A stretch of 64,000 bases of DNA from a virus, in IMG/VR virus record IMGVR_UViG_3300031227_000013. The stretch is one strand, 5' to 3'. Made by a program: the position numbers and the translations under genes. Each line of letters starts with the position of its first letter. The first letter of the stretch is position 1. This document shows positions 16,222 through 34,235 of the stretch, one piece after another. The notes below the pieces were generated by a model. The model saw nothing but the letters and a program-made list of their open reading frames with translations. It searched no databases and was not told where the DNA came from.

Positions 16222-16361
16222 TGTTACTCCGATTGGTTACAAGTTAATATACCGCATCTTTCCGCGGATTGCTTGCCATAGTGTCCAATCATAAAGTAAA
16301 ATTCATTCTAAAATTTCATTAAATCTAAAAAGTTTAGCAGATAAACCTCTGCCAGGTAGTT

Positions 16362-16391
16362 TATTATGCCAAAAAAACAGCTTTTTTTTAG
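16362..16391 (-). promoter_or_regulatory. Promoter-like motif copy 1: CTAAA-N15-TGGCATAATA
   Basis: Same motif and spacing at 24442-24471 and 27880-27909, all intergenic and upstream of minus-strand genes. Confidence 0.6.
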
Positions 16392-16424: not shown

Positions 16425-19400
16425 TTGTTTCACATGTCAGAATTATCCACACAATTTAAACAAACTTTACAGGGATATCATAGCGGAGCATACAATTCCT
16501 ACCTCCCAATGCTTCCATATCTGCAGTTAGACGGTAAGCCTATGACTCTTAATCTGCATTATCCACTGGAACCCTTCTTTAAACTTACAATGCCTCGTAG
16601 GGTAGTGTTTATGGTGGCCCGGCAGTTGGGAAAAAGTATATCGCTTGCTTCCAGAGGTCTTTTAGACAGTGCAATGATACCTAATTTCCATACTTTATAC
16701 ATTCAGCCCCGTTATGATCAGATAAAAAGGTTCTCCACTAACTATGTAGGGCCTATTATCAAGGAAAGTTACCTCGGTAGGGTGTTCGAAGACCCAACCA
16801 GAGAGCAATCTATCCTGCAGAAGAGCTTTAGAAACGGTTCTAACATGTATTTCTCGTATGCTTTCCTAGATTGTGAGCGTTGTCGTGGATTTGCGGCAGC
16901 TAAATGTTTAGCGAAAGGTACTTTGATACAGGGGACTCCTATAGAAGATTTAAAAATAGGGAGAATCCTTGAATCGGTCACTAATGAAGGATATATTATA
17001 CATAATAAAGTCCAGAGAGTTGAAAAAACAGGGGTAAGACCTTGTTTTCGTATAACTTTAAATACTGGACATACTTTAACATGTACAATAGATCATAAAT
17101 TATTCAGCGATGTAGGTTGGATAACTATAGAGGAAATGGTGACTCATGCTTTCAGAAAAACAAAGACAGATGTTGTTGGGAACTCTTCTAGGGGACGGAC
17201 ATTTACAAATAGGAAGTTTAAAGAAGAAAACTTGCCGTTATCAATCAGCGCACGGATGGATTCAACACGACTACAATACCCAGAAATACATAATAATGAA
17301 AAATTATTTAACTCCGAGACAATTGGGGCTGGGAGAACCACAGAAAGTCGAGAACAGGGGGTTCGGGGAATGGTCCAGTCGATGGGGCACGACAACCAAT
17401 ACGGATTTGTTCTTTTTACACGAACTGATACACCTCCCTGGAAAGAAAAAGAAGACGATATCTCAGGAATGGTTAGACTTGATAACTCCCGAAGGGCTGA
17501 TGTGGTGGATATGCGACGACGGGAGTTTGCGAACAAAAGATCGACGATCTATACAGATACATACCGAGGGATTTCAAAAAGAAGAGGTAGAGCTCCTTTC
17601 AAAATGGCTCTATCAAAAATTCGATATAGAAAACAATGTTGTTCCTATAAAATCAAGAAGAAATATAGGGAAATATTATTATATTCTATGTTTATCTGTT
17701 CTAGGAACCAGAACCTGCGTGGATTTAATTCGGGAATTTACTCCGAAATGTATGAATTACAAGATAGATTATCGAAAACTACTCTGCGTAGAATGTGGGA
17801 CAGAGATACAGAGCAACAACAAGACATGTTCCGAAAAATGTTTTACCGACCATCATATAAAAAGGACGGCTATTTATACTCAGAAAAACCAGAAGAGAAT
17901 AAACAAAAGAAAGAGGGAATATTATGCCTCTCATCCGGAAATGAAAGAAAAGAAGAGACAATATATACAGGAGTATTTAAAGGATCCTCAGAAAAGAGAT
18001 CTCCACAATGCTACTCGAAGGAAATGGAGACATTCAAAAAAGGGAGACCCTGTATACGAACAAAAACTAAAAGAGGAACGGAAATTTTATTATCAAAGAT
18101 TGAAAGAAGATCCAGAAAAATACAACAAAAGAATAGATCATCACAATGCTTGGCGTCGAGAAAAACGAGTCAAAGGGGATACCTCCGAGACGGATTATAC
18201 CAGGGAATGGAGAAAACGAAACAAAGAGAAAGTAAAGATTCAAAAGCAGAATCAGTACAAGAAATTAAAGAAACGTATGGAGGAGGATCCTCAATACAGA
18301 CAGGAATTTTTAGCTCGGAAGAGGGAAAATTATCACAAGGGGAAAGAATCTCTTCAAAAGGGAAAGTGATTTCTATTGAATATGTGGGTATTAAAGATGT
18401 GTATGATATTCAAATGGAAAAACAACCTAACTTCTTTAGTAACAACATCTTAACTCATAATTGTTGCTTTGACGAGATTTCTGACATACAATACGACTTT
18501 ATTAGTACAATAGGTGAGGTTTTAAGTGCCCAGACCGAATATGGATTTTATCAGTTTACCGGAACCCCTAAAACTATCGATAATACGCTGGGTGTTCTGT
18601 TTTCAGACAGCTCTCAGGCGGAATGGATCATCAGATGTGGGTGCGGTAAACATAATATACCTAGTCTGGACCATGATTTATTACGGATGATAGGAAAGAA
18701 GACCTGTATCTGCGCTAATAAGAAATGCGGTAAGCCTCTGGATATAAGTACAGGAGAATATGTGCATGCGTACCCCGATAGACAGCATTCGTTCGCCGGA
18801 TATCATTTATCGCAGATAACACACCCTCTGCATGCTGAATTTCCTCTTAAATGGAGTGAGATGCTTTATAAGAGGTCTACTTATCCGGAAGCTAGATTTA
18901 ATAACGAGGTATTAGGGGTCCCGTGTGATGAAAATGTTAAACCTCTGACAGTAATGCACCTTAAACAGGCTAGTAACGGGCTTATCAATGATTACTCCAA
19001 GGCTGTTAAAGAACGTAAGAAGTACGATGCTGTAGTTATGGGAGTGGACTGGAGTGGATACGGTGCAGATAGTATATCGACAACGACAGTAGCTGTAATA
19101 GGTATAATACCCGGAAGCGAAACGGTACACTGTATATATGCTGAGAGATTTAAAATAGGGATAAAACCAGAAGACGAAGCTAAGAAACTTATTGAATATG
19201 CTTACCAGTTCGAGATAACATATTTTGCACACGATTTTTCAGGGGCTGGAATGATAAGGGAAGCCACAATAGTCCAACGGGGATACCCCGTGGAGCAAAT
19301 AGTACCCTTCCAAATCGTCCACGCCCCTGTTAACACTAGTATCATCAACTTCTACCAGCCCGCAAATGGTGGTAGAAGTTGTTACAATATAGATAAGACC

Positions 19401-19727
19401 CGTTCTTTACTGGTTCTGTTCGAAATGATTAAGAAACAGCAGGTAACTCTTCCCGACTGGGAAAAGAACGACGGGAAGACTAAGGATGTATTGAGTGATC
19501 TGCTGAATATAATGCAGGAGACGAGAGAAACTCCCCGCGGTAAGGATTATACCCTTATGATTAAAGTCCCTAACAAAACAGATGACTTTGCTTTCTCTCT
19601 TAATCTAGCCTGTTCCGCTATCTGGCATATTAGGGGCAGGTATCCGTCGCTGGTTACCAGTGTACAGGGTCCTTCCTACGAGGATATGGCACTGGCTGAC
19701 CCGCATCTAGCTAACTGGGATGTATAA
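16425..19727 (+). CDS. terL: Terminase large subunit, interrupted by an intein (precursor 1100 aa; about 580 aa after splicing)
   Basis: Walker A VARQLGKS; Walker B restored across the splice junction (RGFAAAK|CCFDEISD); nuclease VMGVDWSG and TDDFAF; likely start ATG 16434. Confidence 0.9.
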   Translation: MFHMSELSTQFKQTLQGYHSGAYNSYLPMLPYLQLDGKPMTLNLHYPLEPFFKLTMPRRVVFMVARQLGKSISLASRGLLDSAMIPNFHTLYIQPRYDQIKRFSTNYVGPIIKESYLGRVFEDPTREQSILQKSFRNGSNMYFSYAFLDCERCRGFAAAKCLAKGTLIQGTPIEDLKIGRILESVTNEGYIIHNKVQRVEKTGVRPCFRITLNTGHTLTCTIDHKLFSDVGWITIEEMVTHAFRKTKTDVVGNSSRGRTFTNRKFKEENLPLSISARMDSTRLQYPEIHNNEKLFNSETIGAGRTTESREQGVRGMVQSMGHDNQYGFVLFTRTDTPPWKEKEDDISGMVRLDNSRRADVVDMRRREFANKRSTIYTDTYRGISKRRGRAPFKMALSKIRYRKQCCSYKIKKKYREILLYSMFICSRNQNLRGFNSGIYSEMYELQDRLSKTTLRRMWDRDTEQQQDMFRKMFYRPSYKKDGYLYSEKPEENKQKKEGILCLSSGNERKEETIYTGVFKGSSEKRSPQCYSKEMETFKKGRPCIRTKTKRGTEILLSKIERRSRKIQQKNRSSQCLASRKTSQRGYLRDGLYQGMEKTKQRESKDSKAESVQEIKETYGGGSSIQTGIFSSEEGKLSQGERISSKGKVISIEYVGIKDVYDIQMEKQPNFFSNNILTHNCCFDEISDIQYDFISTIGEVLSAQTEYGFYQFTGTPKTIDNTLGVLFSDSSQAEWIIRCGCGKHNIPSLDHDLLRMIGKKTCICANKKCGKPLDISTGEYVHAYPDRQHSFAGYHLSQITHPLHAEFPLKWSEMLYKRSTYPEARFNNEVLGVPCDENVKPLTVMHLKQASNGLINDYSKAVKERKKYDAVVMGVDWSGYGADSISTTTVAVIGIIPGSETVHCIYAERFKIGIKPEDEAKKLIEYAYQFEITYFAHDFSGAGMIREATIVQRGYPVEQIVPFQIVHAPVNTSIINFYQPANGGRSCYNIDKTRSLLVLFEMIKKQQVTLPDWEKNDGKTKDVLSDLLNIMQETRETPRGKDYTLMIKVPNKTDDFAFSLNLACSAIWHIRGRYPSLVTSVQGPSYEDMALADPHLANWDV
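16905..18461 (+). mobile_element. Intein (519 aa) in the TerL ATPase domain
   Basis: Block A CLAKGTLI (Cys1 = TGT at 16905), block B TLTCTIDHKLF, block F DVYDIQM, block G NILTHN ending 18461, +1 residue Cys (TGT at 18462). Confidence 0.93.
17146..18369 (+). CDS. LAGLIDADG homing endonuclease encoded in the +1 frame inside the intein
   Basis: Motif 1 MLLGTLLGDGHL, motif 2 LMWWICDDGSL (LAGLIDADG_2 / I-SceI-like pattern); GAGGA and GGTGA SD-like sequences upstream of ATG 17146; C-terminal CVECG..TCSEKC and charged helical repeats. Confidence 0.9.
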   Translation: MLSEKQRQMLLGTLLGDGHLQIGSLKKKTCRYQSAHGWIQHDYNTQKYIIMKNYLTPRQLGLGEPQKVENRGFGEWSSRWGTTTNTDLFFLHELIHLPGKKKKTISQEWLDLITPEGLMWWICDDGSLRTKDRRSIQIHTEGFQKEEVELLSKWLYQKFDIENNVVPIKSRRNIGKYYYILCLSVLGTRTCVDLIREFTPKCMNYKIDYRKLLCVECGTEIQSNNKTCSEKCFTDHHIKRTAIYTQKNQKRINKRKREYYASHPEMKEKKRQYIQEYLKDPQKRDLHNATRRKWRHSKKGDPVYEQKLKEERKFYYQRLKEDPEKYNKRIDHHNAWRREKRVKGDTSETDYTREWRKRNKEKVKIQKQNQYKKLKKRMEEDPQYRQEFLARKRENYHKGKESLQKGK

Positions 19728-24311: not shown

Positions 24312-24437
24312 AAAAAAGTAGACGGGGATGGGTTCTTACGAACCCCATAACTCTTCCGTAACATCCTCCTGGGTGGTACCCTATTCACAGGGTGTGCCAA
24401 GAGCGTGAATAATGTCTAAGAAGTAAACTCCCCGCCT
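24312..24437 (-). ncRNA. Candidate structured small RNA or cis-regulatory leader (about 126 nt)
   Basis: Begins about 6 nt after the promoter motif; 9-bp closing helix, two internal hairpins, a 7-nt loop complementarity, ends in a U6 tract. Confidence 0.45.
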
Positions 24438-24441
24438 ATTA

Positions 24442-24471
24442 TATTATGCCAATAATATGACATTAATTAAG
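24442..24471 (-). promoter_or_regulatory. Promoter-like motif copy 2: CTTAA-N15-TGGCATAATA
   Basis: Shared motif and spacing; lies just downstream of a terminator. Confidence 0.6.
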
Positions 24472-24475
24472 TAGC

Positions 24476-24500
24476 TAAAAAAAGGGCCTAAGCCCTCTTT
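24476..24500 (-). terminator. Intrinsic terminator closing the radical SAM operon
   Basis: AGGGC-UUAG-GCCCU followed by a U tract, immediately after the stop at 24501. Confidence 0.75.
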
Positions 24501-24863
24501 TTATTCATTACTCCAAACTATCTGAATATTAGGAGATGTTTTTATAATCTCAGTAATATGCTCATCGCAGTACGATACATCCACCCGTACTATCTCATTA
24601 TCCTTAGATAACTTTCTAATCTTTTTCTTTATTTCATTTAGCTTATCTTCCTCCATATAACCTGATTCTAACCACTCTTCCGCCTCTTTAAGACCTTCAC
24701 CCCTAAATTCAGTGTCCGAGTCGTTAGATCCTTCTATCATCTGGATAAAATTATCATATGTTAAATCACTCCTCCCGCAAAGGGAGCAGGGGATAGCTTC
24801 TTTAATAGCGAGTATAAAACTACTGCTCGAACTATTACTTACGAATCCTTTTCTATTCTTCAT
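24501..24863 (-). CDS. FVSNSSSSSF-leader protein 4 (CSLCG motif)
   Basis: MKNRKGFVSNSSSSSFILA. Confidence 0.8.
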   Translation of the reverse strand: MKNRKGFVSNSSSSSFILAIKEAIPCSLCGRSDLTYDNFIQMIEGSNDSDTEFRGEGLKEAEEWLESGYMEEDKLNEIKKKIRKLSKDNEIVRVDVSYCDEHITEIIKTSPNIQIVWSNE

Positions 24864-25320
24864 CTTCTATGATTTCCCATCCTGCACCGCTTCTTGGATG
24901 TTCCAGACAGACTGTGTTATTTCGTCGGTCCAGAGTAAATCCAGCCCCGAGAACTTCTCTGCGAATCCACTCGATTATTTTCTCAGCTTCTCCGTCAGCA
25001 CTAAAGTGTTCCTTCATTATCCATACACCGGCATCCTCCAGCTCATAGTAATCCTTTTCACTATAAGGATGTCCATGTCCACCATCAGCATAAAAGTGTA
25101 TCTTATCTCTCGGAACTTTCAGAACCTCTGTATCACCTTCACAGACGAAGTCAGTTAAGTACACTACTTCATCGTCTGGGATATCCAGCTTAAGATATCC
25201 CAATACTTTTTTACGCTGTTCTTTTTCCAGCAGTACAGAATTACATCTGGAAGGCTCATCCCCAATAACTATAAAACTGCTACTGGAGCTGTTGCTCACA
25301 AATCTTATTCTATTCTTCAT
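24853..25320 (-). CDS. FVSNSSSSSF-leader protein 3
   Basis: MKNRIRFVSNSSSSSFIVI. Confidence 0.8.
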   Translation of the reverse strand: MKNRIRFVSNSSSSSFIVIGDEPSRCNSVLLEKEQRKKVLGYLKLDIPDDEVVYLTDFVCEGDTEVLKVPRDKIHFYADGGHGHPYSEKDYYELEDAGVWIMKEHFSADGEAEKIIEWIRREVLGAGFTLDRRNNTVCLEHPRSGAGWEIIEDEE

Positions 25321-25322
25321 GT

Positions 25323-25598
25323 TTAGTCATCCCATTCAATATGGTCTTCATCAACCTTGACTATCTCGGTAAGGAAGTAATGCATATCGAAATTATCCAT
25401 CATTGTACTTCCTCGAATGTGATCTTTATGATTCTTTATATCCCAGGGCATATCATAATCCATATCTTCCTTTAGGATTCCCTTGGCGACATTGATATGA
25501 TCATAAATCATATTTAACTGCTCATTATTCAAATATTTTTTCTGTATTATAAATGAACTGCTCGAGCTGTTACTTACAAATCCTCTTCGATTCTTCAT
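25323..25598 (-). CDS. FVSNSSSSSF-leader protein 2
   Basis: MKNRRGFVSNSSSSSFIIQ; ATGA overlap with the upstream gene. Confidence 0.8.
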   Translation of the reverse strand: MKNRRGFVSNSSSSSFIIQKKYLNNEQLNMIYDHINVAKGILKEDMDYDMPWDIKNHKDHIRGSTMMDNFDMHYFLTEIVKVDEDHIEWDD

Positions 25599-25894
25599 CC
25601 ATCACGTCCTCCGTCGACACACCAACCTATATCTTTATACTCTACGGCAATTCCAGCACGTGTGAGTTCTTCCATAATTCTTTCTCTAAAAAGGTTGACT
25701 GTTTCATCGTCTTTCATGTTTTCAACATGCATCCCTACAACAACCTGTTCATAAAACTCATCTATTCCATGACAATACGTTAAGGCAGAATCCTGTATAG
25801 ATATATTCTCCCAGACCGATTCTTCTAATACAATTCCCATAATACAGAAACTGCTGCTGGAACTGTTACTTACAAATCCTCTTCTATATTTCAT
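25595..25894 (-). CDS. FVSNSSSSSF-leader protein 1
   Basis: MKYRRGFVSNSSSSSFCIM. Confidence 0.8.
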   Translation of the reverse strand: MKYRRGFVSNSSSSSFCIMGIVLEESVWENISIQDSALTYCHGIDEFYEQVVVGMHVENMKDDETVNLFRERIMEELTRAGIAVEYKDIGWCVDGGRDG

Positions 25895-25905
25895 AATATT
25901 CCCTG

Positions 25906-27021
25906 TTAAATGTTAAATAAAGGACAGTGTCGAACACCATCACGAATTGTTCCCAGACTTATCTTCCTCCATTTATTTACTAGAGGAGAAAACCATACAT
26001 CGTCCAGAAAGTCATTACAATTAATTACATCAATACCTTTATCCCATCCTCCTTCCCCTTCTGCGAAGGAACATGGAAAATATTTTCCTTCCCAGTTAAA
26101 ATAACTTGAGAACAGCCCGAAGCTTTCGCAGGACTCGCTCATCTTAAAATATTCCGGATACATATCACTATCCCGCACAGCATCCAGAAACTTAGGCGCG
26201 GAACAACTGTCGAAGCCGAAATCTATTTTGGCTTTCAAAGCTATATCCACTAATACTTTAAACTTTTCAGCAGATAGAGGTGTAAAATTAACTCCTCTTC
26301 CCTTCTTCTTTAAAGACAGCATCACAACAGCCCCCATCTTACTCAGACGTTCATCACTCTGTATATCTTTAAACAAAGTCAATGTATCTTCAAAACTTTC
26401 TTCATAGATACAGACATGTATATTTGTCTGCTTCAGACCCCTGTCAGTCAGCTTCTTCACTGATTCATAACAGCAGTTCTTATTCTGTGTCGGGTAATAG
26501 GATACACTCACAGCCCCTACATACTCCACTAACTTATCCGCGGTCTCGTCCGATATATCAGCCACGGTTATATTAGGAATTACTTCTGTATAGGGATTAT
26601 TACGGCAGTAATACATCATCCTCCACAAGTCGGGATTAGCTGTAGCCTGTGCATCTGCTCCGAAAGCTATCTGAGTCAATACCTTCCAGGGCTTTATCTC
26701 CCCGTCTATAACTCTGGAACATAGCTTATCAAATAATTGTTTAAATACCTCGAAAGACATATTAGAAGTATTAGACGGATTATTTCCCTTATAGCACATG
26801 GGGCATACCTTACGGGAAGATTCATCGTTAAGATCACATCGCACTCCATGACATATTTCAGTAATCTCAATATCAGCTATCTCCGGACCGTATACAGACA
26901 TATCCGGATCCTCTTCCTCTGTCTCGCCCCAGCGCATAAAATCACCGCTTATCTTATTAAAAACATAATTATACTTTTTTGAGGATAAAACTTTTGTATC
27001 CTCTGTTTCTATAAATTTCAT
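25906..27021 (-). CDS. Radical SAM enzyme with C-terminal SPASM/twitch-like domain
   Basis: DIEITEIC-HGVR-C-DLNDESSRKV-CPMC (expanded CX3CX2C), QIAFG, PNIT, VSVSY, GFDSC, ESC...GKYFPCSF, terminal HCPLF. Confidence 0.85.
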   Translation of the reverse strand: MKFIETEDTKVLSSKKYNYVFNKISGDFMRWGETEEEDPDMSVYGPEIADIEITEICHGVRCDLNDESSRKVCPMCYKGNNPSNTSNMSFEVFKQLFDKLCSRVIDGEIKPWKVLTQIAFGADAQATANPDLWRMMYYCRNNPYTEVIPNITVADISDETADKLVEYVGAVSVSYYPTQNKNCCYESVKKLTDRGLKQTNIHVCIYEESFEDTLTLFKDIQSDERLSKMGAVVMLSLKKKGRGVNFTPLSAEKFKVLVDIALKAKIDFGFDSCSAPKFLDAVRDSDMYPEYFKMSESCESFGLFSSYFNWEGKYFPCSFAEGEGGWDKGIDVINCNDFLDDVWFSPLVNKWRKISLGTIRDGVRHCPLFNI

Positions 27022-27023
27022 AC

Positions 27024-27278
27024 CTATGTAATTTTTCCTTTCTTTTTATTTACCTGCCAGTTCAACCACACAACAAAAGGCTGTTGATTATCTTCACTTA
27101 CCAGACAATCCGAACATGCACCCTGACTACAATTATGACAAATTACTTCATTTATTTTATCGTCCAGATCTGTCCAATCTCTTTTTGTATCCGGACGATT
27201 TAGCTCGTCAAAATATGTAGTTACAAAATCATACATTTCAGAAGGAATTGTTAACCCTTGGAATGCTTCTTTACTCAT
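27024..27278 (-). CDS. Small Cys-rich protein (paralogue of 27271..27528)
   Basis: ICHNCSQGACSDCLVS...FVVWLNWQ. Confidence 0.65.
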   Translation of the reverse strand: MSKEAFQGLTIPSEMYDFVTTYFDELNRPDTKRDWTDLDDKINEVICHNCSQGACSDCLVSEDNQQPFVVWLNWQVNKKKGKIT

Positions 27279-27528
27279 CTGCCTTAACCTTATTCAACTG
27301 CCATTTTATCCACACTAAAAATGCCTTTCTATTTATTGAAGATACCAGGCAGTCGGTGCACTCACATTTTGTACAAACACCGGGACAGCAAAATACATCT
27401 CTCTTTGCCCTAATCCAAGCAGGGTTTGTATTATAATTACAATTACAAAAATCATTAAAAAAATCTAGATTATCCATAAAAAAAGAAGGTAATGCTGGAT
27501 GTATATCTTTATCTTGAAATGTTCCCAC
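27271..27528 (-). CDS. Small Cys-rich protein (paralogue of 27024..27278)
   Basis: CCPGVCTKCECTDCLVS...FLVWIKWQ. Confidence 0.65.
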   Translation of the reverse strand: MGTFQDKDIHPALPSFFMDNLDFFNDFCNCNYNTNPAWIRAKRDVFCCPGVCTKCECTDCLVSSINRKAFLVWIKWQLNKVKADE

Positions 27529-27821
27529 TATTTACTCTCCTCATAGTTTATCTTACCCATTTTCTCCACGGGTACAAATACGTCGTATCCATCATCTTTT
27601 TCCGGATGCTGAATAGTCTCTTCGAATACATGCTTCCACTTATGTCTCCAATAAATAAATTCCTTCCCATCCCATCTGGATACTTCAGCATTCCTGCAAA
27701 TGCCTTTATATACCCCGTCCTTTTCCAGATCCTCAAGAGCTATCATCCCCTGTTTTTTCAACTGCTTTATTACTTCGAGAGTTAATTCCTGCGGTAAACA
27801 TCTAAAATTAATTTCCTGCAT
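27528..27821 (-). CDS. Hypothetical protein, first gene of the radical SAM operon
   Basis: YKGICRNAEVSRWDG...IQHPEKDDGYDVF; AGGGGG RBS. Confidence 0.65.
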   Translation of the reverse strand: MQEINFRCLPQELTLEVIKQLKKQGMIALEDLEKDGVYKGICRNAEVSRWDGKEFIYWRHKWKHVFEETIQHPEKDDGYDVFVPVEKMGKINYEESK

Positions 27822-27879
27822 ATATATCCCCCTGTTAATAATATGTTATTTTTAAAAAATAGTTATATCACTATTAATA

Positions 27880-27909
27880 TATTATGCCAAAAAAAGGGGG
27901 AAAATTTAG
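27880..27909 (-). promoter_or_regulatory. Promoter-like motif copy 3: CTAAA-N15-TGGCATAATA, heading the radical SAM operon
   Basis: Shared motif and spacing. Confidence 0.6.
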
Positions 27910-31169: not shown

Positions 31170-31596
31170 ACTCCCTATAAGCGGAGAAACTATCTTTATA
31201 AAAAAGGCTAAGCCGATAAATCCCGGAGATACAGGAAGTATGTTTATAGACCGTATGTATGCTCAGGGAGGTTTTGTTATAGTTCAGATATTGAACTACA
31301 CTACAAATAAAATGCAGAAGAAAATGCTGGATCCTTCTGATGCTGTTCAGAGACTCAATGCTATTCTACAGGGATTCCCCCCGCAGTATGTTCCGGATGG
31401 ATTTAGAGAAGCTGTTATAAAGGCTGTTATTGCTGCTAAGCGTCAGACATTAGAAGGGGAAAACGAACTGTATAAACAGAACCTGGACATAGACGATCTT
31501 ACAGAACAACTCAAAGCGGATATTAAGGCTGAGCGTGAACTTGATCCCGAGCTTGATAAAGAAATGAGAATAATCGAGTTGGCTAATAAACATTAA
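31117..31596 (+). CDS. Hypothetical protein
   Basis: GGAGA RBS; basic N-terminus; stop overlaps the convergent gene. Confidence 0.6.
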   Translation: MSRKKRRDKRSTRNPSLKLPISGETIFIKKAKPINPGDTGSMFIDRMYAQGGFVIVQILNYTTNKMQKKMLDPSDAVQRLNAILQGFPPQYVPDGFREAVIKAVIAAKRQTLEGENELYKQNLDIDDLTEQLKADIKAERELDPELDKEMRIIELANKH

Positions 31597-34235
31597 GTAG
31601 TAGAACTACTGGAAGGCATGGCTTCTGTACTGCTTGAAGTCATTACTTCCGAACTACTAGAACTAACAGTAGGTCCTCCCCATCCCTCAGGTATTCCGTC
31701 CCAGTTAGTTAGACTACTATCGTTATGTCCGGTAAAGGCGTTCGTTCCAGTTAAAGTTCCATGTGCGTTCCATAAGTCAGGTGCAGTTCCGGCAGATGCC
31801 GCTGTACTTGCGCTAACCCTAAAGAAATTAGTAAAACTAACCGTTTGTCCACTAAACCTTGTAGTTTTTGTTACGGCCCCCGATTCATCATAGAATAACC
31901 ACGGAGACATAACTAATTTAGAACAATTTTGGAATGTATTTATAAATGATGGGGCAGTAGTATTGTATTTAAACAATCCATCGGGGACACTCGTTAAACC
32001 ATTACAAGTATAGAATGTATCAGTAAAACCATTATTTGTAACTAATGTATTATAACGGAATAAATCAGCAGGCAATGTTGTTAAACCAATACAATTATAG
32101 AATGTTCGATAAAAACCACCTGATGAAACTTCTGTATTATACCTAAATAAATCAACAGGTAATGTTGTTAAACCAGTGCATCCAAAGAATGTTACATTAA
32201 AACCCGCCCCTGAGACTAACGTATTATATCGGAACAAATCAACAGGTAATGAAGTTAAACTAGTACAAGTATAGAATGTTCCAGAAAAGCAATTTGTTGA
32301 AGCTAACGTATTATATTTAAACAAATCTATTGGTATTGATGTTAAACCACAATTTTTAAATGTCTGTGTAAAACTGTATATTGAACTCAGGGTATTATAT
32401 CTAAACAAATCAGTTGGTAATGATGTTAGGTTAGCACAATTATTAAATGTATAGGCAAAAGCATTTGATGTAACCCCCACATTATATCTGAACAAATCAA
32501 CAGGCAATGAAGTTAAACTAGTACAGCCAAAGAATGTTGAATTAAATGAAGTTATACCTGTTATACCTCTTATTGGACTCAGGATTGCAGTCAGCTTAGA
32601 CGGATTCGTTAAAAATCTAAATACAGTACACTCCCCCCGCATTGTTAGAGTATAAACATTAGTTCCAGAATAAGTATGTTGTGCGGTGCCTGCTCCATTA
32701 ACAGTAACAGGAGCACCTTCTCCCCAATCAATTACTAAATCAACTGCATTAGAATATGAAATACCAACCAAATCTGCGCCCGTAGTTGTTATCTCAAAAT
32801 TACTACGTTCATCGAATGAACTGGAACTGCTGGAGCTGGTAGGTAATACTCCAGGAGTACTGGAGCTGCTGGTGCTTGTTATACCTAAGGAACTGCTAGA
32901 GCTAGGTGAACTGGATGAACTAGATGAACTGGAGCTACTTGTTATACCTTCTGAACTACTGGAACTACTTGAACTAGAGCTGGATGAACTAGAACTGCTA
33001 GAACTACTTGTTATACCTTCTGAACTACTTGAGCTGCTGGAACTGCTAGAACTGCTGGAGCTTGAAGAGCTACTGGAAGAACTGGTACTGCTGGAACTTG
33101 TTGTTAAAGCTTCTGTACTGGAACTTGAAGAACTGCTTGAGCTGCTACTGCTAGTACTACTACTCGAACTAGTTGTTTTTATCTCTGTACTGGAAGAACT
33201 GGCGCAATCCCCGGACGCAACATCAGGTGCAGGAGCCGTACCTGTATAAACAGCCCATGGTAATTCATCAGGAGACACATAGGGATGTGTAACAGGTGTA
33301 TGATAATCCTGAGTTATCCCCCTCTGTCCCAAAGCCCATTGACTTGTAGATGTAAAGTAAAGTTCCTTGCCTTCTGAATTAGTAAAGTATTCATGTGTAT
33401 TATAAATACCCGCCAGCCCATAATCTCCATCATAATCTTCATCCCCAGCCCCACTTATACAATAACTATTAGGGAAAGAGGAACTGCTCTCGCTGGAGCT
33501 TGAATTGGTACTGGAGCTTGTAGCAATACCTTCTGAAGAAGTACTGCTGGAACTGGAGGTCAACTCTTCTGTACTGCTGGAAGAGCTTGTAGTTAATTCT
33601 TCTGTACTGGAACTGGAGCTTGAACTGCTGGAAGACTGTGAGCTTGAGCTGCTTGAAGAGCTTGAGCTGTTCAGACTGCTTTCAGATGCACTGCTCTCGG
33701 ATAAACTGGTTCCTGATAAAGTAGTCTCGCTGGAACTGGTAGAAGAACTACTGCTTGTACTTGTTGTTGAATTAATAGAACTGGAAGAACTGCTGTCATG
33801 TGTACTTTCTGAGTTACTACTCTCGGACTTACTGGTTTCGGAGGCGCTCGAAGGAGTCTCTCCCGAAGATTGAGAACTGCTGGAACTGCATGGATAATTG
33901 GTAAATAAAATCTCGTCAGATACTTCTTCTATCTGATTATAAATAACATATAGTTTATTAAGGTCTACAGTTATAGACGCAAGCATTTCCGTAGCGAAAT
34001 CATTTCTTCTGTAATAGAGATCGATGCTATCTGAGCGATATACATCTCCTGTATCTTCCGGTACCAATAACATATCGGGAAGAGAAGAGACTTGAGCATA
34101 TACTCCGTCTACATAAGTAAAAGGATTAACTTCCGCTACACTTATTCTAAGTCTGGATGTATACAGGTCCGGAGCGGCAGTTACTATACTGGAGGTGATA
34201 GTCCACATACTACACCGTCCTGTCCAGAGCATCAC
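31593..34235 (-). CDS. Poly-serine linker / PKD-like / BspA-like leucine-rich-repeat protein (putative virion adhesin)
   Basis: Two long poly-Ser tracts, VIDWGEG..HTYSG PKD-like module, about 8 LRR units (TF..C..LTSLP.DLFRYNT). Confidence 0.75.
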   Translation of the reverse strand: MMLWTGRCSMWTITSSIVTAAPDLYTSRLRISVAEVNPFTYVDGVYAQVSSLPDMLLVPEDTGDVYRSDSIDLYYRRNDFATEMLASITVDLNKLYVIYNQIEEVSDEILFTNYPCSSSSSQSSGETPSSASETSKSESSNSESTHDSSSSSSINSTTSTSSSSSTSSSETTLSGTSLSESSASESSLNSSSSSSSSSSQSSSSSSSSSSTEELTTSSSSSTEELTSSSSSTSSEGIATSSSTNSSSSESSSSFPNSYCISGAGDEDYDGDYGLAGIYNTHEYFTNSEGKELYFTSTSQWALGQRGITQDYHTPVTHPYVSPDELPWAVYTGTAPAPDVASGDCASSSSTEIKTTSSSSSTSSSSSSSSSSSSTEALTTSSSSTSSSSSSSSSSSSSSSSSSSSSEGITSSSSSSSSSSSSSSSSSSSEGITSSSSSSSSSSSPSSSSSLGITSTSSSSTPGVLPTSSSSSSSFDERSNFEITTTGADLVGISYSNAVDLVIDWGEGAPVTVNGAGTAQHTYSGTNVYTLTMRGECTVFRFLTNPSKLTAILSPIRGITGITSFNSTFFGCTSLTSLPVDLFRYNVGVTSNAFAYTFNNCANLTSLPTDLFRYNTLSSIYSFTQTFKNCGLTSIPIDLFKYNTLASTNCFSGTFYTCTSLTSLPVDLFRYNTLVSGAGFNVTFFGCTGLTTLPVDLFRYNTEVSSGGFYRTFYNCIGLTTLPADLFRYNTLVTNNGFTDTFYTCNGLTSVPDGLFKYNTTAPSFINTFQNCSKLVMSPWLFYDESGAVTKTTRFSGQTVSFTNFFRVSASTAASAGTAPDLWNAHGTLTGTNAFTGHNDSSLTNWDGIPEGWGGPTVSSSSSEVMTSSSTEAMPSSSSTT

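Follow-up and report, generated by a model that had tools for sequence, protein, structure and literature searches.

The closest described counterparts of the system considered here are radical S-adenosylmethionine (SAM) enzymes, most of which modify peptides or proteins. The system itself lies in the IMG/VR record IMGVR_UViG_3300031227_000013, a single-contig viral record of 185,256 bp, of which a stretch of 64,000 nucleotides was analysed (the window; coordinates are those of the window unless stated otherwise). On the minus strand of the window, the gene for a radical-SAM enzyme is followed directly by four packed genes (24501–25894) whose products start with nearly the same 16 residues, referred to below as the tag; this arrangement had been described in an earlier reading made from the letters alone (the sequence-only reading), and the open reading frames (ORFs) and their translations bear it out. 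We propose that the tag is most likely the substrate of the enzyme and that the two would form a modification system, a reading to which we give a probability of roughly 0.55.

The best structural matches to the phage enzyme are SuiB, paired with SuiA (streptide), and SkfB, paired with SkfA (PDB 5v1t, 6efn), which align near full length, including the N-terminal extension. In these systems, as at the phage locus, there is one enzyme with ribosomal substrates that have a conserved N-terminal sequence and whose genes adjoin the enzyme gene. However, the sequence identity is only 14–15%, and several differences emerge. First, the SuiB and SkfB substrates are short peptides, whereas the phage candidates are proteins of 73–273 residues, one of which was modelled as folded. 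Secondly, the SuiB and SkfB leader is later removed, whereas the conserved phage peptide is probably the modified site itself. Thirdly, clusters for RiPPs (peptides made on ribosomes and then modified post-translationally) usually contain a protease and/or an exporter, but none is conserved beside the phage enzyme. Finally, unlike SuiB and SkfB, the phage system is virus-restricted and has up to 12 unrelated candidate substrates per genome.

Three other comparisons are informative. The anaerobic sulfatase-maturating enzymes (anSMEs) anSMEcpe and AtsB (PDB 4k36–4k39) are known radical-SAM enzymes that target a serine in whole proteins, and the likeness lies in action on Ser or Cys of a full-length protein, probably before folding. 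The anSMEs have two auxiliary clusters and a seven-cysteine SPASM domain, whereas the phage enzyme has four conserved C-terminal cysteines; their target, (C/S)xPxR, is absent from the tag, in whose logo neither Pro nor Arg follows the serines; and they serve one substrate family, the sulfatases, whereas the phage enzyme is associated with dozens of unrelated protein bodies. BtrN, a twitch-domain dehydrogenase (PDB 4m7t), has a single auxiliary cluster, as predicted for the phage enzyme, and gives a weak sequence match, but its substrate is the small molecule 2-deoxy-scyllo-inosamine. EpeE (YydG) with YydF (PDB 8ai1–8ai6) is a peptide-modifying radical-SAM enzyme of the same structural group, but acts at Val/Ile sites of a short secreted peptide, with neither a tag-like motif nor multiple substrates. 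As judged from these comparisons, the phage system appears to work like a RiPP maturase or an anSME and is a member of neither class. In the literature we found no functional study of the enzyme or the tag and none linking them, only one annotation remark; phrog_7293 and phrog_7397 are the same enzyme and tagged families, but only as annotation labels, and the tag-plus-enzyme system is probably undescribed.

The N-terminal tag and the proteins that carry it

The four window proteins begin MKYRRG-, MKNRRG-, MKNRIR- and MKNRKG-, each continuing with FVSNSSSSSF, and a six-frame scan finds the motif exactly four times in the 185,256-bp genome, always at this locus. The logo of 212 distinct tagged proteins reads M-K-(I/V/T)-R-x-G-F-V-S-N-S-S-S-S-S-F, with two hydrophobic residues behind it; R4, N10, S11 and S12 are without variation, and the tag peptide after R4 begins SGFVSNSSSSSF. 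Both serine codon boxes (AGY and TCN) are used in the four window copies, and both occur at each of the serine positions when 208 tags of other phages are compared, so the tag is conserved at the protein level, as had been argued from the serine codons of the window alone. An RNA or translation-initiation element is excluded as the cause of the conservation, since the codons vary freely across the conserved 48 nucleotides. A 30-position profile of the tag matches 25,094 cluster representatives among 1.84 billion proteins, and in about 140 of the 150 best matches the protein's first residue is also that of the tag. Internal or tandem tags were also considered and excluded, each second tag examined beginning with Met (e.g. 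P0121–P0130, where each opens a second body); their sequences point to fused gene calls, upstream start miscalls or assembly repeats.

The bodies behind the tag are highly diverse. With the tag removed they form 84 BLAST clusters, and 119 of 120 pairs compared profile against profile have a probability below 8%, in agreement with the earlier statement that the bodies lack mutual similarity; the body cluster of tagged protein 4 is related to one other cluster (hhalign probability 90%). Some bodies have zinc ribbons. Pfam searches with 86 body representatives gave nine different single-member matches (E 7e-4 to 8e-3), none convincing, with no family matching more than one representative and no sulfatase domain. 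The sole PHROG family common to more than one representative is phrog_7397 (49 of 86), and in the window proteins this match covers the tag region only. The bodies are predominantly acidic, 90% having an isoelectric point (pI) below 5.5 (median 4.53), compared to 35% of neighbouring ORFs. By these sequence criteria, the shared N-terminus is a modular tag on sequence-unrelated bodies.

In an AlphaFold2 (AF2) model of tagged protein 2 (predicted local distance difference test, pLDDT, 83) the body has a generic ferredoxin-like fold, in which residues 14–19 form strand 1 and residues 1–11 are unstructured (pLDDT below 50). Searches with this model against the PDB, viral models and a wide PDB set returned generic ferredoxin-like matches only (Foldseek E of at least 0.02, VIA Z of at most 6.9), and the protein-atlas look-alikes of tagged protein 3 are viral hypothetical proteins only. 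The location of strand 1 raises the question of whether the proteins form one divergent superfamily, the 'tag' being no more than the conserved first strand together with a loop for catalysis or ligand binding. The invariant R4, N10, S11 and S12 are not easily accommodated by such a scheme, as the model places them in its unstructured, low-confidence part, and residues 1–11 are, in this one model, not the core strand of a shared fold that the sequence-only reading had allowed for. Single linkage by whole-protein BLAST (alignments of at least 45 residues) does join 194 proteins, the post-tag positions are hydrophobic in most members, and acidic character is common to all bodies, but these features have to be set against the near-complete lack of profile similarity between tag-removed clusters, the wide range of lengths and the zinc ribbons in some bodies. 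A superfamily would also leave the link to the enzyme unexplained, and we consider it quite improbable.

The sequence-only reading had itself raised another alternative, that the N-S-S-S segment processes itself by a pyruvoyl-type or N-terminal-nucleophile (Ntn)-type N-to-O shift, with the enzyme unrelated to this step or acting afterwards. Ser-Ser and Asn-Ser bonds are classical self-cleavage sites, and the serine run of the tag is invariant. Such a reaction needs a conserved catalytic fold at the scissile bond, however, and the tag has none around it, the bodies being unrelated and the segment predicted to be flexible; moreover, cleavage would free a peptide of only ~10 residues and would not explain the strong linkage to the enzyme. 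Self-processing is thus very improbable.

The radical-SAM enzyme and its association with the tag

The enzyme consists of an N-terminal beta-rich domain (residues ~1–45), a segment in which C57-x15-C73-x2-C76 is the cluster motif, and a C-terminus of twitch-like type that contains C273, C298, C317 and C366. In an alignment of 18 homologues C57, C73 and C76 are invariant and the C-P-(F/M)-C-Y context around the cluster cysteines is conserved; across 70 sequences the conservation of C73 and C76 is at least 95%. The motif had been read from the window protein as an expanded C-X4-C-X10-C-X2-C, and this spacing is right for that protein, but C62 is not conserved and the expansion is a variable insert in a canonical motif: P0089 and P0106 have CX3CX2C, and others have inserts of up to 15 residues between the first and second cysteines. 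Similarly, of the SPASM/twitch-like C-terminus proposed earlier, the twitch-like part stands, with four cysteines that are invariant in the alignment of homologues, but neither CX2CX5CX3C nor a seven-cysteine SPASM motif is present in the family alignments. The four C-terminal cysteines point to one auxiliary cluster, twitch-like rather than SPASM.

Database searches place the enzyme among viral proteins. A word-indexed search returned at least 1978 related database proteins, mostly around 50% identical, and the protein-atlas clusters that look alike are 97–100% viral. The window enzyme has no Pfam match at E ≤ 0.1 and NCBIfam is also silent; none of the window proteins matches Pfam or NCBIfam above threshold, and we take DUF7132 (E 0.023) and guanylate kinase (E 0.078) as noise. 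However, some homologues at about 50% identity carry PF13186 or PF04055, as do 26–33% of the members of related protein-atlas clusters. A single-sequence search of the PDB gave no match, and the lone sequence-level PDB match is a weak one to the twitch region of BtrN (E 0.1).

The AF2 model of the enzyme (pLDDT 89.8) has a partial TIM barrel and finds 87 PDB chains (Foldseek E ≤ 0.001); those listed are radical-SAM enzymes, with VIA Z from 13 to 24. SuiB ranks highest (VIA Z 24.3, model residues 4–370), followed by SkfB (22.0), anSMEcpe (19.4, model residues 44–371), CteB (19.0), ChlB (18.9), PqqE (18.4), EpeE (16.5) and BtrN (15.4). Residues 1–45 of the model consist of four beta strands and contain no helix; the alignment to SuiB begins at model residue 4 (chain residue 3) and that to SkfB at model residue 7 (chain residue 12), and in a profile scan no RiPP recognition element (RRE) matched the enzyme. 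Its conserved cysteines and predicted fold identify the enzyme as a genuine radical-SAM protein, in the structural group of the peptide and protein maturases.

An enzyme-based scan of viral contigs yielded 80 loci, from phages of about 130 kb to more than 500 kb whose enzymes are 30–55% identical. About 64 of the 80 have 1–12 tagged genes, nearly all on the same strand and most directly downstream, and four more have variant tags (e.g. H for F7); in two large contigs where the enzyme lacks a nearby tag, tags lie at other places on the contig. Clustering of neighbouring ORFs identifies the tagged family as the only gene family conserved near the enzyme, with every other family present in at most 7 of 81 loci. 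In the reverse direction, a scan with a DNA pattern for the tag yielded at least 118 stretches, and among the tag-found stretches listed the enzyme is in the stored piece of 43 of 118; it is also present in 22 of 29 further tag-bearing contigs searched whole, among them eight of the nine that are at least 90% complete. The co-occurrence that the sequence-only reading had put forward for testing is strong both ways, with the tag rarely found without the enzyme, and at the level of genome sequence the association is solid across many phage lineages, recurring in hundreds of phages.

The same co-occurrence data could reflect docking, the tag serving as a handle by which the tagged proteins, as interchangeable adaptors or specificity subunits, bring targets (host proteins, nucleic acids, small molecules) to the enzyme or regulate it. 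This would accommodate the many different bodies per single enzyme (up to 12 per locus), their uniform acidity, as expected of binders or mimics, and the extra N-terminal beta-rich domain of the enzyme, inside which the SuiB and SkfB alignments begin. Conservation of all 16 tag positions, including the run of small serines, nonetheless exceeds usual leader docking and resembles an active-site fit, no third component or target gene is conserved near the enzyme, and protein adaptors are, to our knowledge, without precedent in twitch or SPASM enzymes. We regard docking as unlikely, although the least so of the alternatives.

The tags within a genome are more alike than those of different genomes. 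Position 3 is identical in 0.555 of within-genome pairs compared to 0.362 between genomes, and position 5 in 0.417 compared to 0.179, identities reached by none of 500 permutations; some variants are also lineage-wide, with T6 in all tags of locus L052, H7 in all of L065 and R2 in all of L039. This homogeneity across unrelated bodies is suggestive. The enzymes of these three loci have 2–6 deviations at conserved positions, including Y176H and Q198V in L052 (tag G6T) and Q117S in L065 (tag F7H), while the L039 tag has K2R; because these totals are within the normal range (median 3, 10th–90th percentile 1–6), the apparent enzyme–tag covariation is a lead and not evidence. A predicted complex of the enzyme with tagged protein 1, SAM and two 4Fe-4S clusters gave a median of 0.56, compared to 0.41 for a control in which the enzyme was replaced, and speaks neither for nor against binding.

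Several points weigh against the tag being a substrate of the enzyme. The case for its modification is wholly comparative, and the tag is unlike any known radical-SAM substrate motif, such as that of the anSMEs. Of the tagged proteins only number 2 was modelled, with an alignment of 17 rows. Synonymous codons, too, are somewhat more often identical within genomes than between them (0.536 compared to 0.432), and shared ancestry or codon bias could therefore account for part of the tag homogeneity. In the RB16-like T4-like phages the tags lie 12–25 kb from the enzyme, and operon linkage is thus not universal. Lastly, there is one clear exception to the pairing, the complete genome G022 (L177; IMGVR_UViG_3300024259_000002; 132,519 bp with terminal repeats), which has two canonical tagged genes (L177 1199–1931) but no detectable enzyme or PF04055 match.

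The last two observations would be expected if the tag acts without the enzyme, in localisation, packaging, stability or host-factor binding, and co-occurs with it through shared lineages and early-gene neighbourhoods; strict N-terminal position is typical of targeting signals too. Yet tagged genes and enzyme are directly adjacent on the same strand in about 70 of the 80 loci, in diverse phages and with diverse enzymes, and the standing of the tagged family as the enzyme's only conserved neighbour, the presence of the enzyme in nearly all of the near-complete tag-bearing genomes and the virus-restricted distribution of the enzyme family are all hard to reconcile with independent action, which we consider unlikely. 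The interpretation offered in the sequence-only reading is supported in part: both the association and the modularity of the tag are solid, and from them we infer binding and modification of the tag by the enzyme, the residue hit and the product.

Gene order, signals and relatives in cultured phages

The genome encodes tail sheath, large terminase, DNA polymerase and SbcC-like proteins, indicating a large myovirus-type phage. Eight head-to-tail genes in the ORF list, from 27821 to 24501, make up the unit, with three small genes preceding the enzyme gene and the tagged genes (Table 1); between the enzyme and tagged genes the intergenic distances range from an 11-nt overlap to an 11-nt gap.

Table 1. 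Features of the enzyme–tag unit in the window
Feature	Position	Strand	Remarks
Promoter-like motif TGGCATAATATA (TGn + CATAAT, extended −10 type)	27878..27889	−	~55 nt upstream of the unit's first gene; putative function
First gene of unit, 97 aa, phrog_18490 (unknown function)	27528..27821	−	ORF; PHROG match 3.7e-22
Cys-rich small protein, 85 aa	27271..27528	−	ORF; paralogue of 27024–27278 product
Cys-rich small protein, 84 aa	27024..27278	−	ORF; weak phrog_11284 match; stop 2 nt ahead of the radical-SAM start codon
Radical-SAM enzyme, 371 aa	25906..27021	−	phrog_7293 at 7e-87
Tagged protein 1, 99 aa, begins MKYRRGFVSNSSSSSF	25595..25894	−	Body pI 4.2; body cluster 0 (22 members, 20 loci)
Tagged protein 2, 91 aa, begins MKNRRGFVSNSSSSSF	25323..25598	−	Ferredoxin-like body (model); body cluster 1 (17 members)
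Tagged protein 3, 155 aa, begins MKNRIRFVSNSSSSSF	24853..25320	−	Body cluster 6
Tagged protein 4, 120 aa, begins MKNRKGFVSNSSSSSF	24501..24863	−	CxxC right behind tag
Intrinsic-terminator-like hairpin AGGGC-TTAG-GCCCT + T run	24477..24497	−	Directly past the last stop codon

The unit had earlier been bounded by a promoter motif and a terminator. Both are found, the hairpin being read on the minus strand and its stem also returned by a hairpin scan, but the unit additionally holds the three small genes (27024–27821), which had not been listed and are included because the promoter-like motif lies upstream of 27821. The promoter-like motif recurs, with a second exact copy just past the terminator (24440–24451, −) and one-mismatch copies at 16360–16371 and 1755–1766 (−), such that four matches with at most one mismatch occur in the window compared to 0.87 expected; this 12-nt sequence is probably an extended −10 phage promoter. 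An intergenic stretch (24312–24437, −) separates the second exact copy from the next gene. The two Cys-rich paralogues share the pattern C..C..DCLVS...F.VW..WQ.NK, and in the clustering of neighbouring ORFs none of the three small genes is conserved beside the enzyme in other phages. Used as a query against GenBank phage DNA, the region gave no match.

The enzyme family is nonetheless present in 172 GenBank phages, where it goes under the labels 'hypothetical' or 'putative radical SAM protein' and is 37–43% identical to the window enzyme. The carriers include Escherichia phages RB16 and RB43, Klebsiella phages KP15 and Miro, Citrobacter phages Miller and CfP1, Cronobacter phage leE and Vibrio phage D479. 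RB16 encodes the enzyme as RB16p156 and has the tagged proteins RB16p106 and RB16p111, whose genes flank a gene with a vWA domain about 20 kb away. The enzyme gene is in two pieces or ORFs in RB43 (AY967407.1 92778–93819; G021), Citrobacter phage IME-CF2 and Klebsiella phage Kpn35c1. In the related phage Rpl1 a GIY-YIG protein, a putative homing endonuclease, is reported to adjoin the N-terminal part of the enzyme gene, in a segment that is missing in Kpn35c1 (PMC9960720). Because the gene is split in RB43, the phages RB16, KP15 or Miller are better suited for tests.

Two other aspects of this genome deserve mention. Very long serine-rich tracts are present in large ORFs (e.g. 31593–34235, −), one of which encodes an 880-aa protein that resembles phrog_9915, and further ORFs rich in S, T or N, which number in the hundreds per ORF, lie outside the window at about 2.6–14.5 kb of genome contig C1; these serine-rich ORFs may encode fibre or surface proteins and have no evident link to the serine tag. 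The large-terminase ORF (16425–19727, +) is 1100 residues long with the terminase profile covering residues 681–1075 only, and its long N-terminal part could be a fusion, an intein or the product of a mis-called start.

Proposed chemistry and its implications

If the tag is the enzyme's substrate, the enzyme, with its SAM cluster and one twitch-type auxiliary cluster, would recognise M-K-x-R-x-G-F-V-S-N-S-S-S-S-S-F on unrelated small acidic phage proteins and abstract a hydrogen atom within or beside the invariant N10-S11-S12 core, thereby modifying the protein. The tag would then be a portable substrate handle, its first 11–13 residues free and emerging first from the ribosome, while S14–F16 and the hydrophobic residues that follow would anchor it as the first strand of any body. 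Ranked by precedent, the chemistry could be conversion of a serine to a formylglycine-type aldehyde (as by anSME/AtsB and BtrN; −2 Da), followed by epimerisation of the EpeE type and, thirdly, a crosslink within the tag. More tentatively, this could be a general phage tagging chemistry, in which the tag gives rise to a cofactor-like or reactive group, such as a strained crosslink or an aldehyde, by which dozens of unrelated small acidic effectors per genome are armed or stabilised.

With the enzyme in RB16, KP15, Miller and CfP1, and tagged genes confirmed in RB16, the proposal is directly testable in cultured phages. The tag and its dedicated enzyme could also become a protein-engineering tool comparable to the aldehyde tag. 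Should the general tagging chemistry prove true, it would constitute a whole-protein modification system with tens of thousands of clients and no described counterpart. Modification of the tag by the enzyme would in itself represent a widespread virus-specific protein modification system, and would extend the logic of RiPP and sulfatase maturation from peptides, or one enzyme family, to numerous folded proteins, unrelated to one another, that carry a portable tag. Small acidic phage proteins are often host-takeover or anti-defence factors, and the system would provide the first functional handle on many 'hypothetical' early genes of T4-like and jumbo phages.

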